A stretch of DNA of 64,000 bases from Nitrosopumilaceae archaeon (lineage in GTDB: Archaea > Thermoproteota > Nitrososphaeria > Nitrososphaerales > Nitrosopumilaceae). The position numbers and the translations under genes were made by a program. Where the stretch lies: positions 9,558 to 73,557 of the forward strand of contig JBQTHX010000018.1 of NCBI GenBank assembly GCA_052389415.1, given 5' to 3'. Positions 9,332-25,629 of the stretch are shown in pieces; the stretch's first letter is position 1, and every line of letters begins with the position of its first letter. Below the pieces are notes generated by a model. The model saw only the letters and a list, made by a program, of their open reading frames with translations. It did not search any database and was not told where the DNA came from.

Positions 9332-9731
9332 TGATAGATGATGAACTTTTTCTGATATTTATTCCGATTGATCCGTTATGTGGAAAACTGATATGGTATT
9401 TATTACAAAAGCTAGTTTTGAGTACATGAATTTTGAGTAAACACCAATACTTTTTTGGTTTTTCACGTTTTTTTAAAAAAAAGGGAATCTGTTATGATTT
9501 CCGAAAAAACTTCCCATGTAGGGTGTCACATAAATTGCTCCTTTAAAATGACCCTTTGAATATTTGAATAGATGAACTATCCCGATGCTAGCAGATCCTG
9601 AGAGACATGATTTTATTTAGATGGTTATTTCGAGAAAAATCTATTTAACAGATTGGAAAGATACAAGAACCTATTGTCTTTCCTGGAAATTACAATACAA
9701 GATAATTAAAGTTCTTTCGCTATTGGGAATT

Positions 9732-10190
9732 ATGAGTAAACAAGTTTGCTTTTTATGTGAACAAGAACTAGGAGTGCTAAATATAAAATGGTCTGCAAAG
9801 GGTTTTCTTTCTTCAAGAGTTCCTATTCCAGAAGGGATGGGTGAAGAGGACAGAGTTTGTAACGAGTGTTACAACGTAGAAAAAAAGCAAGTCAAAGAAG
9901 AACTAAAGGAAGCAAAAGAGGAATTTAAAGAGATAACTGTGGATCTACTCAAAAGAACGCCTGAATACAAAAAACTCTGGAACAAGGATGGTGTTATTCA
10001 GTTCAAGAACGAAAGAGTAGCTATTCTTCAAAGAGCGCTAGGCAAGCAAGTGGAATTTATCATTGCGTTTGACGATCTAACAAAGGAAGGATACAAACTC
10101 ATGGCAATACAGGAGATTCAAAGCACAGATGGTAAATCTGTAGGAGGAATTAATTCCAACTACTTTTTCCAGAAAATGCAAAGCCTGTAG
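9732..10190 (+). CDS. Hypothetical protein with CxxC...CxxC zinc ribbon
   Basis: Probable start MSKQVCFLC at 9732; CNEC. Confidence 0.65.
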   Translation: MSKQVCFLCEQELGVLNIKWSAKGFLSSRVPIPEGMGEEDRVCNECYNVEKKQVKEELKEAKEEFKEITVDLLKRTPEYKKLWNKDGVIQFKNERVAILQRALGKQVEFIIAFDDLTKEGYKLMAIQEIQSTDGKSVGGINSNYFFQKMQSL

Positions 10191-10290
10191 TTATGTAGTT
10201 CAATTCTAAAATAATAAAACGAATCTTTATTTTTAATCCATTTTAAAACTGCCCAGAATATTTATTTGAGGGAGAAATTCTCATTCATGC

Positions 10291-10529: not shown

Positions 10530-10904
10530 TTGCAAGATCCAAACCCGTTGCCATGGGGCGCACAAGACCGTTTTCAGGCTCATTTCATAGTAAGGAGAAA
10601 CCTTTCTGAAGATGACAAGGGATTTGTAGCTGAAACAAAACAAACAACCAAAGGATTCTTTGGGTCAAATAAGCTGATTAATGTAGAATGGATAGGTGGA
10701 AGTATTGCTGACATACTAAACAACGACTCTGACCTTACCAAAATGATTCTAAAACAGTCTATCAAAGATGCTCAAATTAGGATAGATCCAACAAAGAATG
10801 GAGTGAGAATTTATGGAAAATGGAAAAGCGAAAACGAGTTTGGAATCTCAAAAGAACTGTTTGCTATATACGACAGAATAGCATCTCACATAAAAAATCT
10901 CTAA
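10530..10904 (+). CDS. Hypothetical protein
   Basis: 124-aa ORF 2 bp after previous gene. Confidence 0.6.
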   Translation: MQDPNPLPWGAQDRFQAHFIVRRNLSEDDKGFVAETKQTTKGFFGSNKLINVEWIGGSIADILNNDSDLTKMILKQSIKDAQIRIDPTKNGVRIYGKWKSENEFGISKELFAIYDRIASHIKNL

Positions 10905-11437
10905 GCTCGCCACCAATCTAGTGCTATACAATCTACCTTATCTTTGCCCCGTGGTATAGCTAAGATAAATTGCTTCTTGACTGTAGTGGCAAGCCTCCCA
11001 GCCAGAACCACTCCTGTAGCAGTAATTGTATCACTGGTGTTATAGACCTGAACTAAATAGGGAGCATGATCAATTCCAGGTCCTTTTTGATATACTGCAA
11101 AATCACAACCAAATTTTATTCCGGGATTTACTATGTATCCCTTTTCTCTGAAATCTTTGTAGACTGAATATTTTTTATCAAAGTTATGGTATTCTGACCT
11201 TGCTATTTGCAATAACTCCTTTTCTGAAATTTGTTTTTTTGCTTTGTAAACTTTAATTTTTGATTTTTGTATTAGGTAATATCCTTCTATTAAATCCAAA
11301 ATCAGAGGTACGTTTATCTCATCTAGTTTTGGTTTTGATATTCCAACTGGTTTTCCATAATATCCCTGCACAAAAAGAGAACGCGAATCTTGGATGTTCC
11401 AGATTACGATTCTATTTTCTATTAGTTCGCCTTTCAA
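10901..11437 (-). CDS. endA: tRNA-splicing endonuclease catalytic subunit; likely start TTG at 11437 (MKGELIENR)
   Basis: PGIKFGCDFAVY, GPGIDHAPY, RLATTVKK (Y/H/K catalytic triad). Confidence 0.92.
   Translation of the reverse strand: MKGELIENRIVIWNIQDSRSLFVQGYYGKPVGISKPKLDEINVPLILDLIEGYYLIQKSKIKVYKAKKQISEKELLQIARSEYHNFDKKYSVYKDFREKGYIVNPGIKFGCDFAVYQKGPGIDHAPYLVQVYNTSDTITATGVVLAGRLATTVKKQFILAIPRGKDKVDCIALDWWRA
11425..11437 (+). repeat. attL core GTTCGCCTTTCAA
   Basis: Identical to 23114-23126; 46 bp before integrase ATG. Confidence 0.88.
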
Positions 11438-11483
11438 TTTAGGATTATTGTCACTTAAATGCCAGTAATTAACGTTATAGACC

Positions 11484-12740
11484 ATGCAACGAAGTCTACT
11501 GCGATTCGAAAATGCCATAAAGAGTGAATCTACAAGAAAGTCATACAGGTATCAGCTACAAAAGTTTCTGGGATGGGCAAAAGTTCCTGAAGCTGATGGA
11601 CTGTTGAAACTTAGTGATTCTGACTTGGAATTGTTGCTTGAGGATTACCTGTTCTATAAAAAAACTAGAATCAGTCCTAATAGCATTCCTTTGATCTTTT
11701 CTCCACTTGAATTATTCTTTGGTATGAACGACAAAAATGTTAATTTTAAAAAATTAAGAAAAATGTTTCCTGCTAAAGTGAAGAGAAGTGGTTATGCTGC
11801 TTGGAGTAATGAAGATGCTCGAAAAATACTTGATGGTGCGAAAGGTTATCGTAACAAAGCACTAGTTCACGTTCTTGCAAGTACTGGATGTCGACTAGGG
11901 GCTATTCCTACATTGAAAGTAGGTCATGTTTCAGACATGCAAGGTGGATGCAAAGCAATCCTTCTCTATGAAGGATCAAACGAAGAATACTACGGTTTCT
12001 TAACCCCTGAAGCAAGTAAGGCACTGGATGAATATTTGGAGAGACGAAAACAGGACGGCGAAAAAGTAGGGATTGAATCTCCACTTTTCCGTTTACATTA
12101 CAGGATAGGTTCAGCAAAGGTGGAACCGCTTAACATGATTGCCCTGCAAGCCACGATGGTGAACATCATGAAATATGCAAGACCTAAGAGACACAAGGTT
12201 GGAATACGATACAACATTCAGCTTGATCACGGTTTTAGAAAGAGATTTGCCACAATTATCAAAATGGATAAAAAGATCAGTTGGGCAGTAGGGGAAAAAC
12301 TACTTGGTCATAAAACATATCTTGATGCGGAATATTTCAATCCTACAAAAGAAAACCTTTTTGCAGAATTTCAAAAGGTTGTTTTTAATCTTACAATCGA
12401 CGATTCTGAAAGAAACAAAATAACCATTCATGATCTAAAACAGCATAATTCTACTCTTCAAGTCAAGACTGCAGAAATTCCTGAAATGAAGAAGCAGATT
12501 GAACATGATCACTTGATAGTTCAGGTATTGGCAAAAACTATGAAGGAGATTGGAATAAATTTTGAATATCCTGACGGCACGCCATATAAGATTGATGAAA
12601 ATCTCAAAATCCCTGCTGAATACCTTCCTGAAACTGTTGCATACGATAAACCTCTAGTTGCACATAGCGAAGAAATTTTTCGTAAGATGCGTGAAAAAAA
12701 TAGTACTAATTTTTTTAATGGGGAAAAAAGGTCCTACTAA
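11484..12740 (+). CDS. Tyrosine recombinase/integrase
   Basis: STGCR (R), HGFRKRF (HxxR), LLGH, DAEYF (Y nucleophile); N-terminal STRKSY..L..F segment. Confidence 0.93.
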   Translation: MQRSLLRFENAIKSESTRKSYRYQLQKFLGWAKVPEADGLLKLSDSDLELLLEDYLFYKKTRISPNSIPLIFSPLELFFGMNDKNVNFKKLRKMFPAKVKRSGYAAWSNEDARKILDGAKGYRNKALVHVLASTGCRLGAIPTLKVGHVSDMQGGCKAILLYEGSNEEYYGFLTPEASKALDEYLERRKQDGEKVGIESPLFRLHYRIGSAKVEPLNMIALQATMVNIMKYARPKRHKVGIRYNIQLDHGFRKRFATIIKMDKKISWAVGEKLLGHKTYLDAEYFNPTKENLFAEFQKVVFNLTIDDSERNKITIHDLKQHNSTLQVKTAEIPEMKKQIEHDHLIVQVLAKTMKEIGINFEYPDGTPYKIDENLKIPAEYLPETVAYDKPLVAHSEEIFRKMREKNSTNFFNGEKRSY

Positions 12741-12957
12741 ATTTTAGAGAATTTTTTCTTGTTTTAATTACTTAGTAAAATAAATTCATCACACTTTATA
12801 CATTTCCAGAAACCTATGATTACGCCTAAAACCTCACACTAAGCGTGATATGATGTGTGATATTATAAAAAATGTGAAAATAGCCATAATGTTAGGCATA
12901 ACAAAATCACATTTTGATAGCTACCACAGGCATAACGTTTTCAGTACCGCATATTTT

Positions 12958-13380
12958 TTATGTTCACATAATTTTTTAAAATCACATAATTACACATTTT
13001 AGGCACATAATTAACATCTAGATATTCACATAAAAAATTGCCAAAAGTTTTTTTTGACCCGATACAGCTTGTTTGACACATCTTATGATTTGAATCTTTT
13101 AGGTCCATAAGAAAATCTTAGGAATAAGATTTTGAAATATTCTAAGATCAGGCATTTTATTCCTAAGATTCCTTCTATCTTGTTCCTAAGAAAAAAGGTA
13201 TTGTAATAACATTTAGCATATTTGCTTGTAATACCATATGACTCGTTGCAGGAAACGTCATAATATGGGACGAGTGAGTTCTTATAGGCTCATATTAAAA
13301 TCATGTGCACATGATTTTATGATATCACATGATCTGGTTTTTTGTTCACATGATCATTCACAAGCTACGCACATGAAAAA
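12958..13380 (+). repeat. Three modules of identical geometry (X'-N4-X-N13-X-N16-X-N18-X-AAAA) with X = CATAA, TAAGA, CATGA
   Basis: X at 12967/12985/13006/13029; 13125/13143/13164/13187; 13310/13328/13349/13372. Confidence 0.88.
13296..13319. repeat. Perfect 24-bp palindrome TAAAATCATGTGCACATGATTTTA
   Basis: Read directly; head of module 3. Confidence 0.9.
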
Positions 13381-13481
13381 GAGGTCTATTCAAATGAAAA
13401 AAGCTTGTATGACAAAAGCCTCGACATAAGCTTGATTATTTTGTACAAAAAGATGCGAATTTATCCATTTATGCAACAATT

Positions 13482-13505
13482 GCGTAATCATTGTATAGAT
13501 TACGC
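13482..13505. repeat. Dyad GCGTAATC-N8-GATTACGC overlapping the stop codon of the EndoIV-like gene
   Basis: Read directly; direct copy at 14457-14482. Confidence 0.8.
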
Positions 13506-14345
13506 GGATAATTCCTTTACTTTTTTTATGTTTCCAAAGTCATCGCGTCTATCATCTATTGGCGTTTCCAAAATGATTGGAATCTTCTTAGAACTAGCAA
13601 ATTTAATCACGTGTCTGAGTCCTTCTTCTCCTATCTTGCCTAATCCAATGTGCTCATGTCTGTTTACGTTGCACCCTATTTCTCCCTTCGAATCATTTAG
13701 ATGAATTAGTTTGAGGTGCTCAAATCCTATGGATTCATCAAATTTTTTAAGCGTTGTTGAAACTGATGTTTCAGTTCGTAAATCATATCCTGCTGCAAAT
13801 GCATGGCAAGTGTCAAAGCAGATGCCAAACCTATTTGCAGGTTTGAGTTGCCGCAAAATGGAAGCTAGCTGCTCAAAATCAGAACCTACGCTGTTTTTGA
13901 ATCCAGCCGTGTTCTGAAGAAGAATCATAACATCGTTTTGGTTTTCTGAAGTAGCTTTTGTAAACGCTTCAACAAGCTTTTCTATTGCCCTCTCGTCACC
14001 CGCTCCCATGTGGCTTCCTAGCTTAGATATGAGGTATGGAATGCCTAGTTGACCAGCTCTTCTTGTCTCATCAATTAAGCTGTTCAAAGATCTTACAAAA
14101 AAATCTCCATGTGGAGATGATAGATTTGACAGAATTGGCATTTTAGCAAACGTTGCAAACCTGTCAATTTTACTTGCAGCAAGTTTTTCTCTAAAATTAG
14201 TTATAACATCATTTGAAAGTGGTTTTGCTTTCCACCCACGTGGATTTCTTGTAAAAATTTGAAAAGCAGTGCAACCAAGAGTTAGTGCGTTATCTACTGC
14301 TCTATCGATGGAACCACTGATGGATACATGCATTCCAAGCTGCAT
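13500..14345 (-). CDS. Endonuclease IV (Nfo) paralogue with substituted metal ligands
   Basis: GMHVSISG, FQIFTRNPRGW, CFDTCH, IHLNDS, ILETP present; KMPI, SKLGSH, QNTAG, NRH replace HMPY, THLGSH, ENTAG, DRH. Confidence 0.92.
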   Translation of the reverse strand: MQLGMHVSISGSIDRAVDNALTLGCTAFQIFTRNPRGWKAKPLSNDVITNFREKLAASKIDRFATFAKMPILSNLSSPHGDFFVRSLNSLIDETRRAGQLGIPYLISKLGSHMGAGDERAIEKLVEAFTKATSENQNDVMILLQNTAGFKNSVGSDFEQLASILRQLKPANRFGICFDTCHAFAAGYDLRTETSVSTTLKKFDESIGFEHLKLIHLNDSKGEIGCNVNRHEHIGLGKIGEEGLRHVIKFASSKKIPIILETPIDDRRDDFGNIKKVKELSA

Positions 14346-14440
14346 CGTCTTTCATCTATAACAAGTCGGTGATTTAGATAAACTGGATCGTCTCATATAC
14401 GAATAAAATTTTAATTTCATGTGAGAATTAGATTTACCGT

Positions 14441-14482
14441 CGTAATCCTAAACAAGATTGCGTAATCTTAGTAGAGATTACG
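14441..14482. repeat. Two overlapping CGTAATC-N8-GATTRCG dyads (20-bp period)
   Basis: CGTAATC ctaaacaa GATTGCG (14441-14462); CGTAATC ttagtaga GATTACG (14461-14482). Confidence 0.8.
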
Positions 14483-14721
14483 AAATAAAATCAAATCATA
14501 CGCAAGAACAGAAACGCAGATAGATCCTAATCTATGCTGGATCTCAACAGACTAGAACCAATATTGTAGTTTGAACAAAGATTCAATCGATATACATGGA
14601 AGTGTCAAAAAGACACCTGCTGAACAAGATGAAATAAAGCTAATTTTGGTCAGAATAAGATAATCGTTTGTCGAAAAACTTTAGGCTTTATATATTTATT
14701 TTATAAAATGTACAAATATTT

Positions 14722-14744
14722 TATCTTTACAACAAGTAAAGATA
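14722..14744. promoter_or_regulatory. Operator-like palindrome TATCTTTAC-N5-GTAAAGATA upstream of the Lamassu-like operon
   Basis: Perfect 9-bp arms between an AT-rich TATA-like stretch (~14687-14706) and the start at 14773. Confidence 0.45.
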
Positions 14745-14772
14745 TTAACTAATCACAAATGATGATCAAGAA

Positions 14773-15992
14773 GTGGGAAAATTTTCTGCAGCTTCGTCTG
14801 CTCTCGGATACCTATTTCAGGCAAGGGAAGGATTACTCCTATTACTAAATTCAGAACCAAAAACTGTCATGTATTTAGAACGTTTTGATGACATAGAATT
14901 TGAAAAAGATGGTTCACCAACGGAACTAATACAGTTAAAACACAAACCAAGGTCGGCAACATCTCTGTCGGATACTAGCCCGGACATATGGAAAACACTA
15001 CGAATTTGGATTGAAGCGCATAAGAGCCGCCATGTTAACTTAGATAACACAATTTTCACCATAATTACTACAAATAAGGCAGAACATAATTCTGTAGCAA
15101 GTGTATTAGGATTAGATCAATCTAAACGGGATGTCAAATACGCTGTGGAGACTCTAACAACAGTGGCTAAAACTTCAGTTAGTAAGACTAACGAAGTAGC
15201 ATACAAAGTCTTCTTAAATCTAGAATACGGCGAACAATACAAATTATTAGATAGCACAAGAATCATAGATTCAGCTTCAACTATAGTAAATTTGCAAGAG
15301 GCATTCTACAAAAAATTAAGAATAGCCATTGACCAGAACACCTCAAATCCTTCCTCGAACGATTAGAGGGGTGGTGGTTTGGCGTTGTCATTAGTCATTT
15401 ATCCGGTGACTCTTCAGAACCAATTCATTATGAGGAGTTAGAAGCAAAGATTCATGATCTAAGTGACCAGTATCGAGTTGAAGATCTGCCAATAGATTAC
15501 AGAAACCTGATTCCTACAGAGGAAGCAGAATTAACAGCAAAACAACAAATTTTTGTAAATCAACTAAACATCATCATGTTAAGACAACCCAGAATAAAAA
15601 AAGCTATTACCGATTATTACAAAGCGTATAATCAACGGTCAAGATGGGTAAGAGAAAAGCTTGTTTTTCTCAACGAACTAAGTGAATATGAATCACAGTT
15701 AATTGATGAATGGGAACGTTATTTCTTTAAAGTTGATGAAGGTCTTCGTTCTACCCCCACCGAAGGCGAGTTAGTGAGTGCAGGAAGAACAATTTTTGAC
15801 TGGATGGATACTCAAGCCGATTTCTGCATAAGAAAGTATTGTACGGAACCATACGTTATGAGAGGCACGTATCATATTCTTGCAAATAAACTTCGTGTAG
15901 GCTGGCATCCAAAATTCCTAGAGCGTCTACAAGAATTACTTTCACCAGATTCGGAGAAACATTATGGAACAACAGAAAGAGCGTCCAATTGA
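14773..15992 (+). pseudogene. Lamassu LmuA/DdmA-like Cap4-type PD-(D/E)xK nuclease, frameshifted at ~15330
   Basis: SALGYLFQ, ERFDDI, LIQLKH; alternate frame from 15333 reads PEHLKSFLERLEGWWF and is open into ORF 15576-15992 (RGTYHILAN..VGWHP). Confidence 0.85.
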
Positions 15993-16449
15993 AATAGCGT
16001 CCCTTCTTAATCCAGCATTTTGTGGTCAGACTATATTGCATTGTATTTACAAATTTGAAAAAGTTGCTTCAGATGGATTCCCATACCCGTTGGTTTTTCT
16101 AGTATTGCCATTAATACTACATCAGGAAACAAGAGCAAAGGTTCCTTCTTTTACCCGCATCCCGTTTCATGTTTGGCTCCATAAAAATCAGAATCTGTTA
16201 ATTGGCTTCGCAGAACGTGCAAAACAATTGGTCACAATTACGAAAGAAGCCATTGCATTCTTGGCGAGTTATGACGTACTTAAATTAGAAGATGGAAAAT
16301 TCAGAGTTAGTAACTTTGAACCAAAATATGATGCTGCTATCTCACTGGATGTAAAGGATTGCTTTGCGAAGGCGGAAGTATTAGGAAAGTGGTTTGCAAG
16401 AACGGGTACTACAGCGACAATATATTCTATGTTAGGAGTGCAACCCTAG
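15964..16449 (+). CDS. ABC three-component middle protein (LmuC/DdmB-like, DUF6521-like)
   Basis: RP.EIASLLNPAFCG, LVLPLILH, LGKWF; lies between effector and SMC-like ATPase. Confidence 0.8.
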   Translation: MEQQKERPIEIASLLNPAFCGQTILHCIYKFEKVASDGFPYPLVFLVLPLILHQETRAKVPSFTRIPFHVWLHKNQNLLIGFAERAKQLVTITKEAIAFLASYDVLKLEDGKFRVSNFEPKYDAAISLDVKDCFAKAEVLGKWFARTGTTATIYSMLGVQP

Positions 16450-16450
16450 T

Positions 16451-18367
16451 TTGCAAATTTTGCAAGTAATTCTATATGGTTATAATAACAAAGTACGTAC
16501 GTTATCGTTTAAACTAGGCTCAGTAAACATAATCACTGGTAATTCTGCAACAGGCAAATCCGCCATACTAGAAATTGTTGATTATTGTTTAGGTAAATCG
16601 GAATGTTCGGTACCAGCTGGCGTCATCCGTGATTCAGTAAGATGGTTCGGAATTGTTCTACAACTGAAAAATAGTCAAATGTTTATTGCAAGGAAAAATC
16701 CTCCAGCTGGTAGCACATCTTCAGAAGTGTACATAGAGGAAGCTAAAGAGATTCGTATTCCGTCCTCTCCAATGCCAAGTAATAGTAATGTTGATGCATT
16801 AATTGAGACTCTGAGTAATAAAGTCGGAATATCTCCTAATCTTTACATTCCACCGAGAGGTCAAACGCGAGAAAAGTTATCCGCGACGATACGTCATACT
16901 ACATTCTTCTGTTTTCAAAAGCAGGATGAAATTGCGACCAACAGATATCTATTCCATCGTCAAGCAGATGGTTTTATCGCGCAATCGATTAAGGATTCTT
17001 TAGAATATTTTTTGGGCGCGATTAGGGAAGACAGATTAGCATTACTACAGAAATTAACTCTAGAAAAGAGGAATTTAAGCAAAGCAGAACGAGAACTGGT
17101 CGAGGCAGAAGCAATTAGAGGGGAAGGAATAAGCAAAGCTGTAGGATTAATAATACAAGCCAAAGAAGTTGGACTTGCTTCTCAGGAAGTTAACACACAA
17201 ACACCGGAAGAATATCTAAAAGTGCTCCAAAATATTTCAAAATGGAGACCTCGCGATCTAAAGGTTCCAAAAGCAAATCTTTTAGAAAAACTACAAGATG
17301 ACCTGCTGACACTAAAAGAAGAATTAAGAAGGAAAAATGAAGAAATAAATTCAGCAGTTACATTCTCTCAAGAGGCAGAAGGATTTACGGATGAGATACA
17401 ATATCAAGAACACCGTCTCGAATCTATAGGGCTATTTGATGAACACAGTGAATCCGATTGCCCCATGTGTTCGCAGCCTATTAAGGAAAGGAGTGATAAA
17501 GCTAAAGAAATTCAAAAGATGATTCATGAACTAAAAAATAATCTTGAGGGCTCACTGAGAACAAGATCGAATATTAGAGATTACATAGCAAAATCTGACG
17601 AAGAAGCAGAATCGATCAGAAAGAAAATCGACGAAAAAACCATTGAAATTTCATCGTTAATACAAGAACATGAATCATCAAGCAAGTTACGTGATGAGAA
17701 TATCCGGCAAAGCCAGATCATTGGCAAGATAAAATTTTGGCTCGAGAGTGTTGCTCTTACAGACGAAACGTCAGAATTGCGGTTGGCTGTTGAAAAAGCT
17801 AAGAAGAAAGTGAAGGAACTAGAATCATTAATTTCTGATGAGGAGAGAATAATGCGTCTAACTAGGATTTTGAACATTATCGGAAGGCAAATGTCTATTT
17901 GGACAGAAGAATTAGAATTAGAGCATAGTGGATATCCTGTTTATTTTGATATTCACAAATTAACAGTTGGAGTAGAAAAAGATGAACAATATATTCCTCT
18001 AATAGAAATGGGGAGTGGCGAGAATTGGTTAGGCTATCATATAATAGTAAATTTTGCTCTGCATTTGTATTTCCATCGGCATAATAGACCAGTACCAAGT
18101 TTTCTCTTCTTAGATCAACCGTCTCAAGTCTATTTCCCGCCAGATTTAGCAGATGAGTCGAAGGGTTCAATAGCTAAACTGAAAGATCGAGATAGAGATG
18201 CGATTAAAAGGATATACAATTTCATTTTCAAAGTTACAGAATCAATGGCGCCAAACTTTCAGGTAATAGTAACGGATCATGCAAAGTTGGACGATCCTAA
18301 ATTCCTTAAAAGTATTAGAGAAGAATGGAGAGACGGTAAAGCTTTGATTCCTCAAGATTGGCAATAG
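16451..18367 (+). CDS. Rad50/SMC-like ABC ATPase (LmuB/DdmC-like, DUF3732)
   Basis: Walker A ITGNSATGKS, coiled coils with CPMC hook, GSGENW signature, LFLDQPSQVYFP, VIVTDH. Confidence 0.88.
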   Translation: MQILQVILYGYNNKVRTLSFKLGSVNIITGNSATGKSAILEIVDYCLGKSECSVPAGVIRDSVRWFGIVLQLKNSQMFIARKNPPAGSTSSEVYIEEAKEIRIPSSPMPSNSNVDALIETLSNKVGISPNLYIPPRGQTREKLSATIRHTTFFCFQKQDEIATNRYLFHRQADGFIAQSIKDSLEYFLGAIREDRLALLQKLTLEKRNLSKAERELVEAEAIRGEGISKAVGLIIQAKEVGLASQEVNTQTPEEYLKVLQNISKWRPRDLKVPKANLLEKLQDDLLTLKEELRRKNEEINSAVTFSQEAEGFTDEIQYQEHRLESIGLFDEHSESDCPMCSQPIKERSDKAKEIQKMIHELKNNLEGSLRTRSNIRDYIAKSDEEAESIRKKIDEKTIEISSLIQEHESSSKLRDENIRQSQIIGKIKFWLESVALTDETSELRLAVEKAKKKVKELESLISDEERIMRLTRILNIIGRQMSIWTEELELEHSGYPVYFDIHKLTVGVEKDEQYIPLIEMGSGENWLGYHIIVNFALHLYFHRHNRPVPSFLFLDQPSQVYFPPDLADESKGSIAKLKDRDRDAIKRIYNFIFKVTESMAPNFQVIVTDHAKLDDPKFLKSIREEWRDGKALIPQDWQ

Positions 18368-18830
18368 GCGGTGACAAATTAATGACAGGACGATTCATGG
18401 AGTCTTTTCCAGATGTTGAAATTATAACTTGAATCTTATTTCAACTTAAAATATCACTTTCAGGAACAACTGATGCCTTTGGATGTTAAGATTGTAGTAG
18501 ATCCTGCCAAACAAATAGGATGATACATGTCTTGCATTGATAATGTTGTATTGGCTGCTTTTGCGTTTTACTATCAATGAAAACTATGACTAAATTCAAT
18601 GGAAATAAGATTAATTTTGTTAATTAATGAATGACGTGGCAATAAATTTCTAAACAATAATCTTTTCGTGCAAATTTTCTAAACGATTAAAATTTCCAGT
18701 TTAGGAAATGTGAAACTGATGAATTCTACTTAAAGTTTAATAAAATCGACTATACGACCACGGTATGAATGTATTTTTGAATCATGACATCCATTCAGGC
18801 ATATATTTCGAAAGGGATATGATGTAATAG

Positions 18831-19895
18831 ATGTATCCACTGATTGACGCCGCACGACTTTACGATGAACTTGCTTTGTCGTCGGAGAGAATTAAATGGT
18901 CTTGGGCTTGCAGAATTTTAGATAAATCCAACCTTAAGATTGATACTTCACTGCCAACGACGCCAAGAGCTGGTGATATTGTTCTTGTAAGAGTGGAACA
19001 AATTGGTTATCATAAATCAATCATAGCTTCTAGCAATAAAAAACTCCGTATATATGATGGCGATCTTATCATGGGAATTTTTGGGAACCGATATGCCACA
19101 AACGCACTTGAAGGTGTAGTCGAAGGATTTGAAAACCTCAGCATTTTGACTGCAGGTGGAATGATTGGAACGGTAAAATCCAAACATCAAGACTTTGGGA
19201 AAACTACCAACGTCTCATTTATTGGGTTTCTAAATGACAAGAGTAACCATAGGGTTAACCTAAAAGAACTGAAATTTCACAAATCGAAACCAGTCAGCGA
19301 TACAAAAAATCTAATAGTTTTAGTTGGAACAGGAATGAATACAGGCAAAACAACATCTGTTAGAATGCTAATTAGAGGACTTTCAAAAAGGGATCTAAAA
19401 ATAGCTGCATGCAAACTTACAGGTAGTGTGTCAAATAGAGACGCAGACGAAATGAGGTCCGCATCAGCTAGCTGTACAATTGATTTTAGCGATTATGGAT
19501 TTCCTTCAACATATCTGTGTGACAAAGAAGAGTTACTTGATCTCTTCAATAATATGTTATCTGATGTGGAAAAGTTAAATCCAGACGCAACGGTGATGGA
19601 AATTGCTGATGGTATTCTTCAAAGAGAAACCATGATGCTTCTTGAGGATCCATCAATTAAAAAAAGAGTCAAAGGCATTATACTAACAGCGGAAAGTGCA
19701 CCATCTGCGCTTTATGGTGTTGACAAACTCAAAAAATTAGGTTACAATATAATCGGGGTATCGGGTGCAATGACATCGTCACCATTATTTGTAAAAGAAT
19801 TCAGGCAAAACTGCGAAGTCAGAGTAGCGTCATCTGTTGATTCGGCGGATGAATTGGTCGAAATTGTTCACAAGGCTATTACTATGGAAAACTAG
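18831..19895 (+). CDS. DUF1611-like P-loop protein
   Basis: GNRYAT, GTGMNTGKTT, KLTG, EIADGILQRET. Confidence 0.72.
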   Translation: MYPLIDAARLYDELALSSERIKWSWACRILDKSNLKIDTSLPTTPRAGDIVLVRVEQIGYHKSIIASSNKKLRIYDGDLIMGIFGNRYATNALEGVVEGFENLSILTAGGMIGTVKSKHQDFGKTTNVSFIGFLNDKSNHRVNLKELKFHKSKPVSDTKNLIVLVGTGMNTGKTTSVRMLIRGLSKRDLKIAACKLTGSVSNRDADEMRSASASCTIDFSDYGFPSTYLCDKEELLDLFNNMLSDVEKLNPDATVMEIADGILQRETMMLLEDPSIKKRVKGIILTAESAPSALYGVDKLKKLGYNIIGVSGAMTSSPLFVKEFRQNCEVRVASSVDSADELVEIVHKAITMEN

Positions 19896-19911
19896 AAGAC
19901 ATTGTTGAAGA

Positions 19912-21684
19912 ATGAGCTCACAGCAGATATCTCCAGTAAAATATGCACTTAAGCATCTTAAAAAATATAAGCTAAAATTAGCAGCTGCCATCTTCTGGTC
20001 TATTCTTTTTGTAATAATTCCTATGCAGGTGCCTATTCTTACTGGAGCTTTAATTGATGGCATACATGGAAAGAGTGTAAAATTATACGGACTTGTAGAA
20101 TTAAATCAATCACAGGAACAAATTCTCAATCTTGCTGTTATAGGTCTAGTTCTAGTTGCCGCAATTTATGGTGTCACTGCGTATTTTCGTACAACTGCAA
20201 GAGCAAAGATAAGTCGGCACTTCATATTTGAGCTTCAAAAAGCACTGATTCAAAAATTAGAATTTCTATCCTTAGATATACACGCAAAATACGGATCTGG
20301 AGAACTACTAAACAGAACAATAGTTGATACTGGTTCAGTAAGACCGTTTGTTGAAGGCACTATAATCAAAGCGTGCACCAACGTTGTTAGAATAACATAT
20401 CCATTTCTAATACTGTTCATTATGGATCCAATTCTTGCTGCAATGTCTTCGTCAATCTTGCCCGTTCAATTCTTACTTACTAGAACTCTACAAAAAAAAG
20501 TTCGTAAAGCGTCAAGACATTCTAGAAAAAACAGATCAAAGTTAACCACCTTCGTAAAGGAAAGTCTTGATGGCATAGAAACAATTCAAACTTCAAATGC
20601 CGAAAGATATTCAATTGAGAAAATTTCCCGACAAGCAGAAATGGTGGAAACCCATCAATTACATACTCAGAAATATTTTGGACTGATGACTGGTCTTGCA
20701 TGGTCTCTAACTAGTTTAGGACTAGCAATAACATGGTGGCAAGGTGGACTCAAGGTCATATCAGGAGAAATGACAATAGGCAATCTAATAGTTTTCACAG
20801 GGTTTGTACTCTTTATTTATGCCCCCCTGCGCAGATTTACGGAAGTAATGAAGGATTACCATAAAAGTATAACAGCAGTTGAGAATATTCAAGAAATTCT
20901 GGATACACCTTCATCAATTCAGGAATCTCCAGATGCGGTACAATTAACAGCGCCACATGGAAAAATAGAACTCCAGAACGTCAGTTTTTCATATGCTGAA
21001 CGCAAAGTATTGAACAATCTTAACATTACTATCGAAAAAAATAGCATTACAGCCATAGTAGGTAAAAGTGGTTCAGGGAAGAGCTCTCTTTTAAAATTGA
21101 TTACAAGACTGTATGATCCCTCGGAGGGACAAATTCTGATTGATGGACAGGATATCAAAAAAATCACTCTTCTATCCCTTAGAAAGGCTATCGCAGTTGT
21201 TCCTCAGACACCTGTGATCTTTAATGGAACAATACTGGAAAATGTCAGATTAGCAAGACCAGAGGCAACAGATCAAGAAGTAATAGAAGCATGCAAATCA
21301 GCTGACGCGTTGGAATTTATTCTTAAACTTGATAGGGGATTCAACGCAGTTCTAGGAACTGGTGGAACCAATCTTTCTGGAGGACAAGTCCAACGAGTAG
21401 CCATAGCAAGAGCCTTACTTAAGAAACCAAGAATACTTTTGCTGGATGAACCCAGCTCCGCCTTAGATGCTAAATCAGAATCAGCTGTGATAGCAACGTT
21501 AGAACATCTAAAAAATAATATGACAATCATATTGGTTGGGCATCATCTTAAAGCAATTAGCAGTGCAGACAGATTAATCGTATTAGATGACGGAAAAGTA
21601 GTGCAAGAAGGAACTCATAAAGAACTTGTTTCTTCACAGGGAGTTTACAGTCTCTTGTATTCTTGGGAGGAAAATAAAAATTGA
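19912..21684 (+). CDS. ABC exporter, fused TMD-NBD (MsbA-like)
   Basis: GKSGSGKS, LSGGQ, LLLDEP; N-terminal TM domain. Confidence 0.92.
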   Translation: MSSQQISPVKYALKHLKKYKLKLAAAIFWSILFVIIPMQVPILTGALIDGIHGKSVKLYGLVELNQSQEQILNLAVIGLVLVAAIYGVTAYFRTTARAKISRHFIFELQKALIQKLEFLSLDIHAKYGSGELLNRTIVDTGSVRPFVEGTIIKACTNVVRITYPFLILFIMDPILAAMSSSILPVQFLLTRTLQKKVRKASRHSRKNRSKLTTFVKESLDGIETIQTSNAERYSIEKISRQAEMVETHQLHTQKYFGLMTGLAWSLTSLGLAITWWQGGLKVISGEMTIGNLIVFTGFVLFIYAPLRRFTEVMKDYHKSITAVENIQEILDTPSSIQESPDAVQLTAPHGKIELQNVSFSYAERKVLNNLNITIEKNSITAIVGKSGSGKSSLLKLITRLYDPSEGQILIDGQDIKKITLLSLRKAIAVVPQTPVIFNGTILENVRLARPEATDQEVIEACKSADALEFILKLDRGFNAVLGTGGTNLSGGQVQRVAIARALLKKPRILLLDEPSSALDAKSESAVIATLEHLKNNMTIILVGHHLKAISSADRLIVLDDGKVVQEGTHKELVSSQGVYSLLYSWEENKN

Positions 21685-23018
21685 TTCAACTAGATTCTGT
21701 TCTGAAACCTATAGAAAATCACAACTCATCTGAATCTGAAATTATTGGTTTTTCAGAAGAGGATAGGCCATTAACCGTTACATACCATGGTAGAAACATA
21801 AAATCATCACTTAGGGTTTTTATTATTGCGGGTCAACATGGAGACGAAAGATATGGACGTAAAGCCATTGATCGTTTTATTACTTACATGACAGATGGAA
21901 AACTAAATTTTCCACTAATGCAGTTTGCAATTTTGTCTAACGCAAATCCAGACGGTGCGTCAGTAAGGAAACGAGAAAACGCACAGGGGATAGATTTGAA
22001 TAGAGATCATCAACGTTTGGACAGTAAGGAGAACCGCTGTGTACATTCCTTCGTAAGACGATGGAATCCACACATGATTATTGATGTACACAACTACCCT
22101 TCAAAAAGGAAACATCTACTAGAAAAAGACATCATGCTATATTATGATGTACTTGTAGACGTTCCAACAAATCCAGCTGCCTATTGTATTAAAGAAAAAA
22201 GCAAAGCAGAATTCATAAAAAATATTCGTTCAGATCTACGATCTCATAACATTAATTGTGAAAGATACTTTATTGTAAAGCCATCGGGGAGAGTCAGACA
22301 TGGTAGCCCTGACATAGTAGACGCTAGAAATTCGCTTTCATTAAGGTACAACACTTTGACTTTTCTAGTAGAGGGACGAACTTCCACACGAGGAGAAGAT
22401 AAATCCTACAGGGAACATCTTGTTTCTTCCCAATGCGAAGCGATTGCATCAATACTGCGATGGACCCAAACGCAAAGAAGTTCTTTAATGGAAAATCAAA
22501 ACTCCATTCCTAAAAAAGGAGACAATGTCGCAATTAGTTCGAGATATGTAGGAGCTACTCAACCATTTGAAATAAGTTTTAAGAATTTACAAACAAGAAA
22601 ATTGGACGTTGTTTCACTTGTAAAGTATACGCCCAGCATAAAAGTTACAAAATATGCTACTTTACCAACTTGTTACGCTATTCCATCAGGTAAGTCCAAG
22701 GTCATTGAAATGCTACATAGACATGGATTCGTGTCTGCGCTTTCTGACTCCCATAAGTTTGAAAATATTCAATATTATAGTATTCAGTCTGTAAAATATT
22801 CAACACGCGAAAATAGAGCGCCAAGGAAAATCACTATGTTGACAAAATCAGAACAAAGAAGATTAGATAAATTCTTTATTTTCCCCACATCTCAAAGAGG
22901 AGGTCACTCGCTTGCAGTCTTTTTGGAGCCTGACTCGAAGTACGGACTTCATAGATACGCCGATCTAGATCTGCCAATTATTCCAGATTCACATTATCAT
23001 ATCTTACGAATTATGTGA
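21681..23018 (+). CDS. M14 family zinc carboxypeptidase
   Basis: QHGDE, NPDG, RENAQGIDLNRD, IDVH. Confidence 0.85.
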   Translation: MIQLDSVLKPIENHNSSESEIIGFSEEDRPLTVTYHGRNIKSSLRVFIIAGQHGDERYGRKAIDRFITYMTDGKLNFPLMQFAILSNANPDGASVRKRENAQGIDLNRDHQRLDSKENRCVHSFVRRWNPHMIIDVHNYPSKRKHLLEKDIMLYYDVLVDVPTNPAAYCIKEKSKAEFIKNIRSDLRSHNINCERYFIVKPSGRVRHGSPDIVDARNSLSLRYNTLTFLVEGRTSTRGEDKSYREHLVSSQCEAIASILRWTQTQRSSLMENQNSIPKKGDNVAISSRYVGATQPFEISFKNLQTRKLDVVSLVKYTPSIKVTKYATLPTCYAIPSGKSKVIEMLHRHGFVSALSDSHKFENIQYYSIQSVKYSTRENRAPRKITMLTKSEQRRLDKFFIFPTSQRGGHSLAVFLEPDSKYGLHRYADLDLPIIPDSHYHILRIM

Positions 23019-23113
23019 CCATCATGTGGATACACACTTCAAGTTCAGCCTTGATGACACGTAGTCTTTAGAATTTTTGATACTATCATACAATTGAAAA
23101 AATTCGCTAATTT

Positions 23114-23126
23114 GTTCGCCTTTCAA
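23114..23126 (+). repeat. attR core GTTCGCCTTTCAA
   Basis: Identical to 11425-11437; 1 bp from the DUF47 stop codon. Confidence 0.88.
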
Positions 23127-23127
23127 G

Positions 23128-23781
23128 TTATAGGCTTAGGGCTAAAGAAATAAAGGAATCAGAGGCTTCAAGACATTTATCGGCCATTTCCTCCACTCCG
23201 CCTATGATGTCTTTTAAAAGTAACAATTCTTTGGTAATTGTAATCTCATCTAAGACCTTGATCGTTAGGTCACGATATTTATCATCCACATTACGTTCTA
23301 TTTTTTGAGTTTCATGAGCAAGCTCTATGGCTCCTGATGGATTAGTATTCAGTGCACGAACAATTTCATTCAGCTTGTAAATTTCATCTACTACTAGATC
23401 AATTAATTCTGTAATGTCTTTGTCAAGTTTACTTTTCTTCAAAGTAGAAGCCTTGATATTTGAAAGTTTGAATGCTATGCCGTTGATATATCCTGAAATT
23501 TCATCCATTGTATATGCTGTTCGCAAGATATTTTCCCTATTCATCATCAAGCCTCCTACTTCAGCAATCTCTCTTGTTATCTTTCGGCGCAGAGCTTCTA
23601 CTTCATCTTCTGTGCTGCGCATTCGTTCAAGGGATGCTTTTATCTCGGTTTTATCTCCTTTTATAATAAGGGCAGGTAATGCAGAGAGATCTCTTACTGC
23701 GTTAAGAATTCTGTTAATTTCATCTTGCAAAACTGCAATCGCTTTTCGCTTTGCTTGAACTTCTAATTCTCCGCTGTACAT
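23128..23781 (-). CDS. DUF47/PhoU-like phosphate transport regulator
   Basis: Helical repeats EDEVEALRR, IERNVDDKYR, EEMADKC. Confidence 0.82.
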   Translation of the reverse strand: MYSGELEVQAKRKAIAVLQDEINRILNAVRDLSALPALIIKGDKTEIKASLERMRSTEDEVEALRRKITREIAEVGGLMMNRENILRTAYTMDEISGYINGIAFKLSNIKASTLKKSKLDKDITELIDLVVDEIYKLNEIVRALNTNPSGAIELAHETQKIERNVDDKYRDLTIKVLDEITITKELLLLKDIIGGVEEMADKCLEASDSFISLALSL

Positions 23782-23856: not shown

Positions 23857-25629
23857 TTAAATGTAATTCTGTCTTTCTTCTTGAATTGATCTTTTTTGTC
23901 CGTTGTAAAGTGAGATGACCTCTTCATCTGTTGTTGCATTCTCTGGAGTTTTTTCAAGCCTAATCTTGCCTGTAAATTTTGGAAATCTAAGAGCAAGACC
24001 ACTCCCTTTTCTTATCCTATCTATTGCTGTTTTGTGGATAGGACTAAGGGTTATTTCCGATGCTACAATCTCAATCACCACTTCAGGTTCAAACCATACA
24101 TCAGCGTCAAGTCCGCTGTTTATTCTAGGATTTTTTTTCAAAGTTATTCTGCTAGAAAGTATCTGAAAGAATTGATCAAGATTTTCATCTGTAAATCCGG
24201 TGCCAACTTTGCAAATACTTGGATAGGTGTCAGTTTTATCATCATACGTGGCAAGTAATAATGCACCATATCTTCCAGTCCTTCTGCCGCGTCCAAAAAA
24301 CGCACCTACTACAACAAGATCTAAACTGTCTCCTAGCTCATTCCTGTATTCCCGTTTTAGCTTAAGCCAGTTATTTCCTCTGGCACCAGCTCTGTAGGGG
24401 GCATCGAGTTGCTTTAACATTAATCCCTCACATCCTGCATTAATTGCATTTTCTAATGCATCTTCAACGTCATTATCTGATTTTACTAATGTCATTGGCA
24501 TGACTTTGGCAAACTCGTCTTCTCTGACAATTTTTTCAAGTATCTTTCGTCGCTCTTTGTATGGCAAGTCAAGACAGCTTTTACCATCAATAAATAAAAT
24601 ATCAAAAAAGTTTACGGTGATGGGATATTGTGAAACTGCCTTTGCAATATTGTATTTTCTTCTACGATGCATTAGTTCTTGAAACGCTAGAAACTCGCCT
24701 GTGTTATCATTGATTGCAACAGCCTCTACTTCCAATATTGCTTCATTTGCATCAAGGGATTTGCTAATCCTCTCAACTATGTCAGGGTAATAACTTGTAA
24801 TATTTTCAAGACTTCGAGAATAAAGTAGAATCTTCTCTGCTTTTATGTGAATCTGCACTCGTTCTCCATCAAGCTTGTATTCTGCCGCAAACTCCTCGCC
24901 CATCTTCTCATGAGCTTCTTGTGGACTTTTTACGCGCTCTGCTAACATTGGTCTGATGGGATTAAAAACTGAAACTTGGAAATTCTTAATAGAATCAATT
25001 CCGTCTTTTGCAAGGGTTGCAGAAATTTTTCCTAAATCGCTTGACACGTTATATGCTTGTTCAAGCAGTAGTCTATTTTCCTTTGAACCAGTAAAAGCAA
25101 TTGAAAGTGAATCAAGTAGCGTGTAATCAGCAATTCCTAAACGCAGAGAATTGGTAATTATTTTGAGAATAAATCCTGCCTCTATAGGACTTGCATCATT
25201 TAACAGACTTGAAATATACTTTAATTTCATATCCTGTGAGCGTATTCCTTTAAGTTCCGCAATTTTGAATAAAGTTTCATAAACTCTTTCCACAGTGATA
25301 TCTTCTTTAACGAACGTGGTCTGTATTTTTTGTTTCAATATGTTTGCAGCAGCTTGGCCTAAATCACCACTTTCATGATACGCATTTTCAATTTTTTTGA
25401 TTGGAATTCCTGCAGATTTTGATATTGCTTTTATGGCAATTTTTTCTGCAACGCCTAACTCTATTCCCTCATGATCTGGTTTTAGTTTTCCTTGCAATAG
25501 ATACACAACACTTGAAATTACTTCAGGTGGAGTTTTTTTGAATAAATCTACAAGATATTGTGTTAACTCTAGTCTTTTTGTCGTAGTCTCCATTATTTTT
25601 AGCGTTTCTGCTACAAGAGAAAACTTCAT
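23857..25629 (-). CDS. lig: ATP-dependent DNA ligase
   Basis: EYKLDGER, EGLMLK, WLKLK, LRFPKF. Confidence 0.96.
   Translation of the reverse strand: MKFSLVAETLKIMETTTKRLELTQYLVDLFKKTPPEVISSVVYLLQGKLKPDHEGIELGVAEKIAIKAISKSAGIPIKKIENAYHESGDLGQAAANILKQKIQTTFVKEDITVERVYETLFKIAELKGIRSQDMKLKYISSLLNDASPIEAGFILKIITNSLRLGIADYTLLDSLSIAFTGSKENRLLLEQAYNVSSDLGKISATLAKDGIDSIKNFQVSVFNPIRPMLAERVKSPQEAHEKMGEEFAAEYKLDGERVQIHIKAEKILLYSRSLENITSYYPDIVERISKSLDANEAILEVEAVAINDNTGEFLAFQELMHRRRKYNIAKAVSQYPITVNFFDILFIDGKSCLDLPYKERRKILEKIVREDEFAKVMPMTLVKSDNDVEDALENAINAGCEGLMLKQLDAPYRAGARGNNWLKLKREYRNELGDSLDLVVVGAFFGRGRRTGRYGALLLATYDDKTDTYPSICKVGTGFTDENLDQFFQILSSRITLKKNPRINSGLDADVWFEPEVVIEIVASEITLSPIHKTAIDRIRKGSGLALRFPKFTGKIRLEKTPENATTDEEVISLYNGQKRSIQEERQNYI

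Follow-up and report, generated by a model that had tools for sequence, protein, structure and literature searches.

An nfo paralogue with a replaced Zn1 sub-site

The question raised by the locus described here is what function is served by a DNA-repair nuclease gene that is intact and in which part of the catalytic centre has been replaced. The stretch analysed (the window) comprises 64,000 nucleotides of contig JBQTHX010000018.1 (C18) from the genome of a Nitrosopumilaceae archaeon (G000; assembly GCA_052389415.1, 1.43 Mb in 94 contigs), and carries a gene of the endonuclease IV (Nfo) family, referred to here as WIN. Endonuclease IV is the textbook trinuclear-zinc DNA-repair enzyme. Judged from sequence, the ligand triad of one zinc ion, Zn1, is replaced in thaumarchaeal Nfo proteins, WIN included, that belong to at least four lineages which never group together. 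Tentatively, and with a probability that we put at roughly 0.42, WIN is taken to be a selectively maintained Nfo derivative without Zn1, which would bind DNA and metal and act as a phosphodiesterase of narrowed or altered scope. The gene and its five key codons are as follows, E. coli Nfo numbering being that of WIN plus one.

13500..14345, minus strand: WIN, third nfo paralogue of the genome, a single intact 281-aa open reading frame (ORF) with an ATG start
14142..14144, minus strand: codon AAA for K68, equivalent to E. coli H69, a Zn1 ligand
14133..14135, minus strand: codon ATT for I71, equivalent to E. coli Y72, the wedge at apurinic/apyrimidinic (AP) sites
14022..14024, minus strand: codon AAG for K108, equivalent to E. 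coli H109, a Zn1 ligand
13914..13916, minus strand: codon CAG for Q144, equivalent to E. coli E145, which bridges Zn1 and Zn2
13662..13664, minus strand: codon AAC for N228, equivalent to E. coli D229, a Zn3 ligand; changed in WIN alone among 13 variant sequences

WIN is recognised by the NCBIfam nfo model TIGR00587 (254.8 bits; cut-off 129.65) and by PF01261 (2.2e-38, 132.8 bits; cut-off 31.1). All four NCBIfam equivalog cut-offs are missed by WIN, as they are by both canonical paralogues of the genome and by every variant described below, and these scores do not, therefore, separate variant from canonical copies. In HMMER alignments with known structures, of which T. maritima endonuclease IV (2x7v, 3.6e-52) and E. 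coli Nfo (1qtw, 5.8e-49) are the best matches, K68, I71, K108, Q144 and N228 stand opposite H69, Y72, H109, E145 and D229 of the E. coli enzyme, and D178, H181, H215, H230, E260 and the RNPRGW DNA-binding loop are kept. The initial annotation of this DNA, which had described an intact 281-aa Nfo with these substitutions and retained residues, proved correct in every detail checked against the ORF and the alignments. Five of the nine ligands of the trinuclear set (H69, H109, E145, D179, H182, H216, D229, H231 and E261) are present in WIN, the remainder being changed as H69K, H109K, E145Q and D229N. In keeping with that annotation, extracts of PMC13113976 describe one zinc ion, Zn1, held by the equivalents of H69, H109 and E145. 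Zn1 would not, on this pattern, be bound by WIN.

The same five codons read CAC, TAT, CAT, GAG/GAA and GAC/GAT in the two canonical paralogues, from which WIN differs by eight nucleotide changes. The observation that histidine gave way to lysine twice, by two base changes each time, also holds, with AAA and AAG in WIN against CAC and CAT in the paralogues. No stop codon or indel occurs over the 846 nt of this AT-rich gene, and a stop codon lies three codons upstream of the start codon, leaving no N-terminal extension. Contigs from two DNA runs (X1 and X2) match the window across the gene with zero differences, although they do not count as independent support since the runs may be the source of the assembly.

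Tyr72, the AP-site wedge, is Ile71 in WIN and tyrosine in 200 of 200 canonical thaumarchaeal references; all nine ligands, together with Tyr72, are present in these references and in 143 of 150 diverse representatives. WIN departs from eight of the 75 columns that are invariant in 121 canonical relatives, and five of the eight fall on the ten catalytic and wedge positions (hypergeometric P 6.8e-4). Structure modelling, as the initial annotation had proposed, gave a confident Nfo fold: the AlphaFold2 model, built on a 45-sequence alignment, has a predicted local distance difference test score of 96.8 and a predicted template modelling score of 0.94, and Foldseek aligned it with the Nfo structures 2NQ9, 4HNO, 1QTW and 2X7V at template modelling scores of 0.93-0.94 and root mean square deviations of 1.5-1.9 Å, as a predicted TIM barrel.

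WIN is supernumerary in its genome. None of the ten key residues is changed in the two other nfo-family genes of G000, on contigs C14 (282 aa) and C67 (281 aa), which bears out the earlier description of WIN as a paralogue additional to canonical nfo. Identity of WIN is 72% to the C14 copy and 64% to the C67 copy. Among 121 genomes sampled from the family an nfo match was present in 118, mostly as a single copy, and no orthologue of WIN was found, the best match (77% identical) being canonical. Elsewhere in the genus of the window, four genomes have two matches, one (G026) has three, of which one is a contig-end fragment, and one 84%-complete genome has none. The Nfo relatives of WIN carry Nitrosopumilaceae names where the source gives one. 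Canonical copies stand beside the variant in all three variant-bearing genomes that are known (two in G000, two in G057 and one in G344), a coexistence that fits sub- or neo-functionalisation. As a separate observation, the sole nfo match of G086 (contig C2, 50235-51226) lies in two pieces, covering query residues 1-205 and 185-280, which suggests a frameshifted nfo.

Selection on a mosaic gene

The selective dismantling of a metal centre that had been ascribed to WIN is upheld in one respect and overstated in another. The Zn1 triad and the tyrosine wedge are changed and the rest of the protein is under purifying selection, with a ratio of nonsynonymous to synonymous substitution rates (dN/dS, or omega) of about 0.15 overall and 0.08 in residues 151-281; the metal centre as a whole is probably not dismantled, however, given that H181 and H230 are kept in 13 of 13 variants. 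Pairwise Nei-Gojobori comparisons of WIN with canonical genes yielded dN/dS values between 0.04 and 0.16, dS being close to saturated. On the branch leading to WIN, dN was 0.126, dS 0.86 and omega about 0.15 (range 0.11-0.27) by a three-point estimate, and the same method returned about 0.07 for canonical genes and 0.14 for L021, a variant from G057; these omega values are rough estimates, made without a codon-model test. By region, the values are distributed as follows.

Residues 1-60: dN 0.067, dS 0.51, omega 0.13 (canonical omega 0.07-0.13)
Residues 61-150: dN 0.303, dS 1.34, omega 0.23 (canonical omega 0.07-0.16)
Residues 151-281: dN 0.124, dS 1.53, omega 0.08 (canonical omega 0.06-0.08)
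13896..14165, minus strand: hyper-diverged central segment, codons 61-150, which holds K68, I71, K108 and Q144

Canonical dN in the central region is 0.10-0.17, the WIN value being two- to threefold higher, and identity to any protein found is at most 70% there, compared with 88-91% over residues 1-60 and 82-84% over residues 151-281. Residues 181-220 are 95% identical to P0466, one of the variants described below, but show only 65% identity to the canonical gene that is nearest overall. The dS of 0.51 in residues 1-60, set against canonical values of 1.2-2.2, points to fairly recent exchange with genes of the host-genus type. On these comparisons WIN is a recombinant mosaic. Constraint on its ends matches that on a working Nfo, and the excess of change is restricted to a stretch of 90 residues that forms the Zn1 site and the loops next to it. 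WIN thereby shows one mark of a pseudoenzyme, the loss of catalytic residues under purifying selection on the remainder.

An intact ORF together with a low branch omega indicates that WIN is not a long-standing pseudogene. It could still be a decaying redundant duplicate, that is, a captured nfo whose function was lost recently and whose ORF is open by chance. The presence of two canonical copies in the genome, an omega about twice the canonical value and a frameshift in the adjacent lmuA gene (described below) would be expected of such a duplicate. Against this, omega is 0.08 over residues 151-281 and 0.13 over residues 1-60, 67 of the 75 invariant columns are kept, and eight changes in key codons have accumulated with no stop or indel in 846 nt. 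Taken with the evidence from related variants given below, decay is judged to be distinctly unlikely.

Recurrent replacement of the Zn1 ligands

A collection of homologues sharing K/K/Q/N with WIN had been proposed as a check; no such homologue was found, and the other lineages use different residues. The initial annotation had also named two observations as jointly fatal to its proposal. The first, that no homologue shares the substitutions, is the case; the second, neutral evolution, is not, omega being about 0.15 and well under 1.

The database proteins nearest to WIN were canonical in 119 of 119 cases. Among representatives at 50% identity, 143 of 150 were canonical, three were truncated, three differed at one position (68 or 71) and one, P0124, was without the Zn1 triad (N/D/Q). 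When P0124 was taken with its 119 nearest relatives, 92 of the 120 were canonical and 28 were not, the latter mostly with H109D/E145Q/E261Q (the Nitrososphaeraceae-type clade). The best 30 loci of a class survey (301 genomes) were all canonical, as were 79 of 80 species-genome loci, the exception being L149v (D/F/K plus H216N), and 78 of 80 metagenome loci, where one further locus was truncated and another, L189, was split into two ORFs. A search limited to WIN residues 60-150 returned further proteins, of which 88 of 96 were canonical, four truncated and four variant. These four, with L021, are as follows.

P0410: E/Q/Q
P0420: N/S/K plus two more changes
P0466: Y72M, H109K
P0479: T/S/Q
L021: third copy in the same-family genome G057, A/R/K at the Zn1 triad

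Where the source names them, the variant proteins are called 'deoxyribonuclease IV'. The Nitrososphaeraceae-type variant clade was absent from the best 30 class-survey loci and from the 80 species-genome loci, and was met at one of the 80 metagenome loci, L189. This 1,062-nt metagenome contig, the sole recovery of the clade as DNA, has two ORFs and also D178N; some members of the clade may be decaying, or the contig may be in error. No integrase was found in the 9 kb around L149v. P0420 and P0466 have in common an N-terminal extension of ∼47 aa with no Pfam match. Viral carriage was considered and rejected, as scans of IMG/VR with WIN and with an alignment of the variant clade yielded only Nfo homologues of 25-35% identity, many of them on GVMAG-labelled contigs. 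Within the literature searched, which left most subscription journals and supplements outside, no description was found of a natural Nfo without Zn1 ligands, nor anything linking endonuclease IV to pseudoenzymes or to the Lamassu defence system.

Trees were built with FastTree (LG+gamma, Shimodaira-Hasegawa-like supports). In these, L149v lies next to the canonical copy of its own genome at a branch length of 0.35-0.37, P0479 has canonical genes from a different genus as its neighbours, variants of the Nitrososphaeraceae type stand beside the canonical sequences of that family, and P0410, P0420 and P0466, joined in one clade (support 0.98), adjoin L021 within the group of C67 type. With full-length sequences WIN takes a basal position, but the C-terminal half of WIN falls with P0420 and P0466 (support 0.95), for which reason WIN and L021 were no longer counted as independent. 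Four lineages were accordingly distinguished: lineage A (WIN, L021, P0410, P0420 and P0466), L149v, P0479 and the Nitrososphaeraceae-type clade.

Convergence was assessed over 77 columns conserved in at least 97% of 200 canonical sequences, with 13 variant sequences; three members of the canonical comparison set (L011, L013 and L020) come from genomes flagged as unpublished, and no conclusion rests on them. The number of conserved columns changed was four in lineage A, 11 in L149v, eight in P0479 and five in the Nitrososphaeraceae-type clade. Columns 68, 108 and 144 were the only ones changed in at least three of the four lineages (random expectation 0.19, P about 4e-4), and column 108 was altered in all four. 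Because the lineages had been chosen by a change at any of the ten key sites, a second test was confined to these sites, and here 12 of 14 hits fell on 68, 71, 108 and 144 where 5.6 were expected (P about 2e-5). H181, H230 and the RNPR motif were unchanged in 13 of 13 variants, D178 and D228 were kept in 12 of 13 and H215 in 11 of 13; column 149, glutamine in 72 of 84 canonical sequences, was replaced in 11 of 13. Such recurrent replacement of the same site suggests, at the level of sequence, a selected change of function. Decay of a redundant copy would be consistent with the exact WIN pattern being a singleton and with the splitting of L189 in two ORFs, but random decay does not predict that three columns should be struck alike in independent lineages.

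The identity of the replacing residues bears on a further explanation, namely that WIN is a lysine-based AP lyase in which a Schiff base between the abasic sugar and one of the two lysines, K68 or K108, would turn a hydrolase into a beta-lyase. Two lysines were gained in the active site, at two base changes each, and K108 arose independently in L149v and is found also in P0466; WIN and L149v share K108 and M113 by convergence. Lysine at 108 is nevertheless confined to these three of the 13 variants, and lysine at 68 to WIN, which is likewise the only variant with I71 and N228. In the other lineages position 68 is occupied by A, D, E, N or T, and position 108 by R, S, Q, D or N, so that lysine chemistry is not the common denominator and the lyase, as a general explanation, is weakened. 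In the canonical enzyme positions 68 and 108 face the metal and the phosphate, not C1' of the sugar, and we know of no precedent for a lyase of this kind in the Nfo family; for WIN itself this explanation is regarded as most improbable.

An integrated island with a defence system as cargo

Inspection of the neighbourhood, which the initial annotation had recommended, placed WIN on an integrated mobile element; neither this element nor the mosaic structure of the gene had featured in that annotation. The features concerned are listed below.

11421..11441, unstranded: attL-like direct repeat, ATTAGTTCGCCTTTCAATTTA, at the 5' end of the tRNA-intron endonuclease gene
11442..23109, unstranded: island body, ∼11.7 kb, absent from three same-genus genomes
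23110..23130, unstranded: attR-like direct repeat, ATTTGTTCGCCTTTCAAGTTA
11484..12740, plus strand: tyrosine recombinase (integrase) at the left island end (PF00589, 9.5e-8, 32.4 bits; cut-off 27.1)
14773..15992, plus strand: LmuA of Lamassu, Cap4-like effector with CTD7 tail (positions 5-182 and 265-370 of the 373-position PADLOC profile, matched by two ORFs)
15964-16449, plus strand: LmuC (MC3), PADLOC model match, looks intact
16451-18367, plus strand: LmuB (DUF3732 ABC ATPase), PADLOC, 2.1e-134, looks intact
18831-19895: 354-aa island protein with weak ParA/MinD/CbiA-type P-loop hits, all below cut-offs
13483..13504, unstranded: palindrome CGTAATC-N8-GATTACG, overlapping the WIN stop codon
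14441-14462 and 14461-14482, unstranded: the palindrome twice more, the copies overlapping, at 96-137 nt before the WIN start codon

The two 21-nt repeats are identical at 19 of 21 positions and spaced by 11,689 nt. The left copy spans the TTG codon at which the tRNA-intron endonuclease gene probably starts, and an uninterrupted relative (L034) has a single copy. The insertion was placed by blastn at about 11442-23114; the interval from the tRNA-intron endonuclease (10901-11518) to DNA ligase (23857-25629) is 12.3 kb here and ∼740 bp in G088, G117 and G050. An integrase, flanking repeats and an empty site in relatives, by which an integrated element is recognised, are thus all present. In run X1 the island (window 11408-23143) forms a separate contig of 11,736 nt at a depth of 14.6, against 19.7 and 19.9 for the flanks, and a 47-nt contig at a depth of 7 connects the left flank straight to the right-hand repeat, as at an empty site. 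The lower depth of the island contig and the empty-site contig together suggest that island-carrying and island-free genomes coexist in one sample, contig depth not being a share of cells.

Thaumarchaeal 'cryptic integrated elements' have been described as a class (Krupovic et al. 2019, PMC6563490), and the island resembles them in its terminal integrase, att-type repeats, size below 20 kb and defence cargo. It differs in carrying nfo-like cargo, neither 'endonuclease IV' nor 'AP endonuclease' appearing in the main text of that paper. WIN is cargo of this element, and the host keeps two canonical nfo genes. The remaining cargo includes an ABC transporter and an M14-like peptidase, and the 18831-19895 protein is a candidate partition ATPase, as might be expected if the element had a plasmid-like origin. 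LmuA is broken by one frameshift near 15330-15366; this is probably real, since the contigs of both runs agree with no indel difference, and the Lamassu system may consequently be inactive. No functional or regulatory link, and no partner for WIN, Lamassu included, was found.

The palindrome occurs at three sites in the 1.43-Mb genome, all of them bracketing WIN, whereas a reversed control occurs at none, and it was not found in 183 other loci fetched. It belongs to a 26-nt direct repeat with copies 978 nt apart, and might serve as an operator or recombination site or mark the boundary of a cassette. Between the integrase and WIN lies a 760-nt AT-rich stretch without a long ORF (12741-13499), with iteron-like short repeats, among them 18-mers in tandem (12953-12988) and several occurrences each of 'CACATAA' and 'TTCCTAAGA'; this stretch may be the replication origin of the element. 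The same attachment site is occupied in another genome of the genus (G026, contig C7; locus L035, 1900-6702) by a different insert of ∼4.8 kb, whose products include a winged-helix-like regulator and proteins that are secreted or membrane-bound, with no integrase among them, marking the site as an insertion hotspot. A second small insertion in the window (9391-10256) is missing in four same-genus genomes and holds a 189-aa ORF (9621-10190) without a Pfam match.

A probable reduced metal centre and its proposed function

In WIN the Zn1 sub-site and the Tyr72 wedge have been replaced, whereas the predicted TIM barrel, the RNPRGW loop, E260 (the water-activating Glu) and the greater part of the Zn2 and Zn3 ligand set are preserved. 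A reduced metal centre probably persists in the Zn1-less variants, as H181 and H230 are kept throughout and D178, H215, D228 and E260 in most; in WIN it would hold two metals, or possibly one. WIN would most likely still dock on duplex DNA that is damaged or nicked, and the ammonium groups of K68 and K108 would stand in for Zn1 at the scissile phosphate, in both space and charge. A more general charge-balance idea, with cationic side chains offsetting the lost zinc, was dropped when net charge changes proved inconsistent across lineages. Some residual catalysis would be retained, with a repertoire of phosphodiesterase reactions narrower than, or altered from, that of canonical Nfo.

The E. coli H69A variant is reported to be impaired in nucleotide incision while remaining competent in AP endonuclease activity. 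PDB entry 4K1G contains the H69A enzyme with a cleaved duplex bound (PMC8307549; PDB title), which indicates that loss of one Zn1 ligand need not stop cleavage. A later model of the mechanism has Glu261, bound to one zinc ion, generate the nucleophile by activating the attacking water (extracts of PMC13113976); as WIN keeps the equivalent E260, residual activity is favoured.

A fully active enzyme that has been switched to other metals, or made zinc-sparing, is a different possibility, with the lysines (possibly carbamylated), Gln and Asn rebuilding the centre as a response to metal-poor water. A carboxylated lysine reportedly exists in the related TIM-barrel nuclease UVDE, to go by the title of a paper. 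Endonuclease IV structures do vary in their metals (Zn3, Zn/Mn, Zn/Fe, Zn/Ca and Zn/Mg; extracts of PMC13113976), and the title of PDB entry 8RLY refers to 'catalytic Fe2+'. The known metal variants nevertheless use the same nine ligand positions (PMC13113976, extracts), the replacing residues are inconsistent between lineages and no link to metal regulation was seen; moreover, the gene sits on a mobile island and most relatives are without such a copy. A metal switch is accordingly considered very unlikely.

Several observations weigh against the preferred reading of WIN as a maintained, Zn1-less phosphodiesterase. Five hits are combined in one protein, including D228N at Zn3 and Y71I, and E144Q removes the ligand that bridges Zn1 and Zn2. 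By analogy, the fact that the Y72A enzyme could be crystallised on damaged DNA (2NQ9) hints at impaired cleavage. The differing residues found at the lost site look, from the sequences, more like released constraint than lysine-assisted design. The exact K/I/K/Q/N set was found in no second protein among those returned from a 5.8-billion database, and the WIN branch has an omega about twice that of canonical genes. The largest variant clade has E260Q, by analogy with which the whole class may be non-catalytic, and island cargo can decay, as the frameshift in the neighbouring LmuA illustrates.

Part of this evidence would suit a pseudo-nuclease that does not cleave, and that would bind, shield or sense abasic sites, nicks or 3' ends, for the element or the cell, through the retained DNA-docking surface of Nfo and a residual metal or phosphate site. 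Three Zn1 ligands, the tyrosine wedge and one Zn3 ligand are all changed in WIN, the barrel and the RNPRGW loop are under purifying selection, canonical copies remain in the same genomes for repair, and the gene is on a mobile element. E260Q in the largest variant clade, moreover, strikes the residue proposed to generate the nucleophile (PMC13113976, extracts). In a protein freed of metal chemistry, however, H181, H230, D178 and H215 should drift like the Zn1 triad, and they do not; replacement of the tyrosine that stabilises the AP site once it is flipped is unexpected in a dedicated AP-site binder, and the search for a partner or regulatory link gave none. A non-cleaving role is, on balance, somewhat unlikely. 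A broader proposal, that ammonia-oxidising archaea have repeatedly made spare Nfo into Zn1-less sensors or shields of lesions or DNA ends without canonical incision, is held to be unlikely; in the present case, on a mobile element, such a protein could protect element DNA or signal its state, or modulate base-excision repair or defence in the host.

Relation to known endonuclease IV and significance

WIN is a member of a known enzyme family and does not represent a new type of system. It is more than a curiosity because the change recurs in several lineages and the gene is carried by a mobile element. WIN is like the endonuclease IV enzymes of E. coli (1QTW, 1QUM) and T. maritima (2X7V, 4HNO) in family model, length, predicted barrel, RNPRGW loop and the residues equivalent to D179, H182, H216, H231 and E261, and differs from them in H69K, H109K and E145Q (all at Zn1), in D229N and Y72I, and in being a supernumerary gene on a mobile island. 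The laboratory mutants of E. coli Nfo, H69A (4K1G), Y72A (2NQ9, on damaged DNA according to its title) and E261Q (2NQH, made for structural work), are single engineered changes, whereas WIN has five natural ones at once; the mutated sites coincide with natural changes, at H69 in WIN and others, at Y72 in WIN and at E261 in the Nitrososphaeraceae-type clade. The other Zn1-less Nfo paralogues are of the same phylum and family, have lost the same sub-site, keep H182, H231 and the RNPR motif and are extra copies where the genome is known. Their replacing residues differ from those of WIN, and location on an integrated element was demonstrated for WIN only.

The natural and recurrent loss of one of three metal sites provides a ready-made test of the role of Zn1 in AP incision, nucleotide incision and exonuclease activity, and Zn1-less Nfo may define a new functional subclass. 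Since the variants go by the name 'deoxyribonuclease IV', the repair capacity of ammonia-oxidising archaea, when deduced from genomes, may be over-counted. Finally, a derivative of a repair enzyme can travel as cargo of a thaumarchaeal integrated element, adjoining a defence system.

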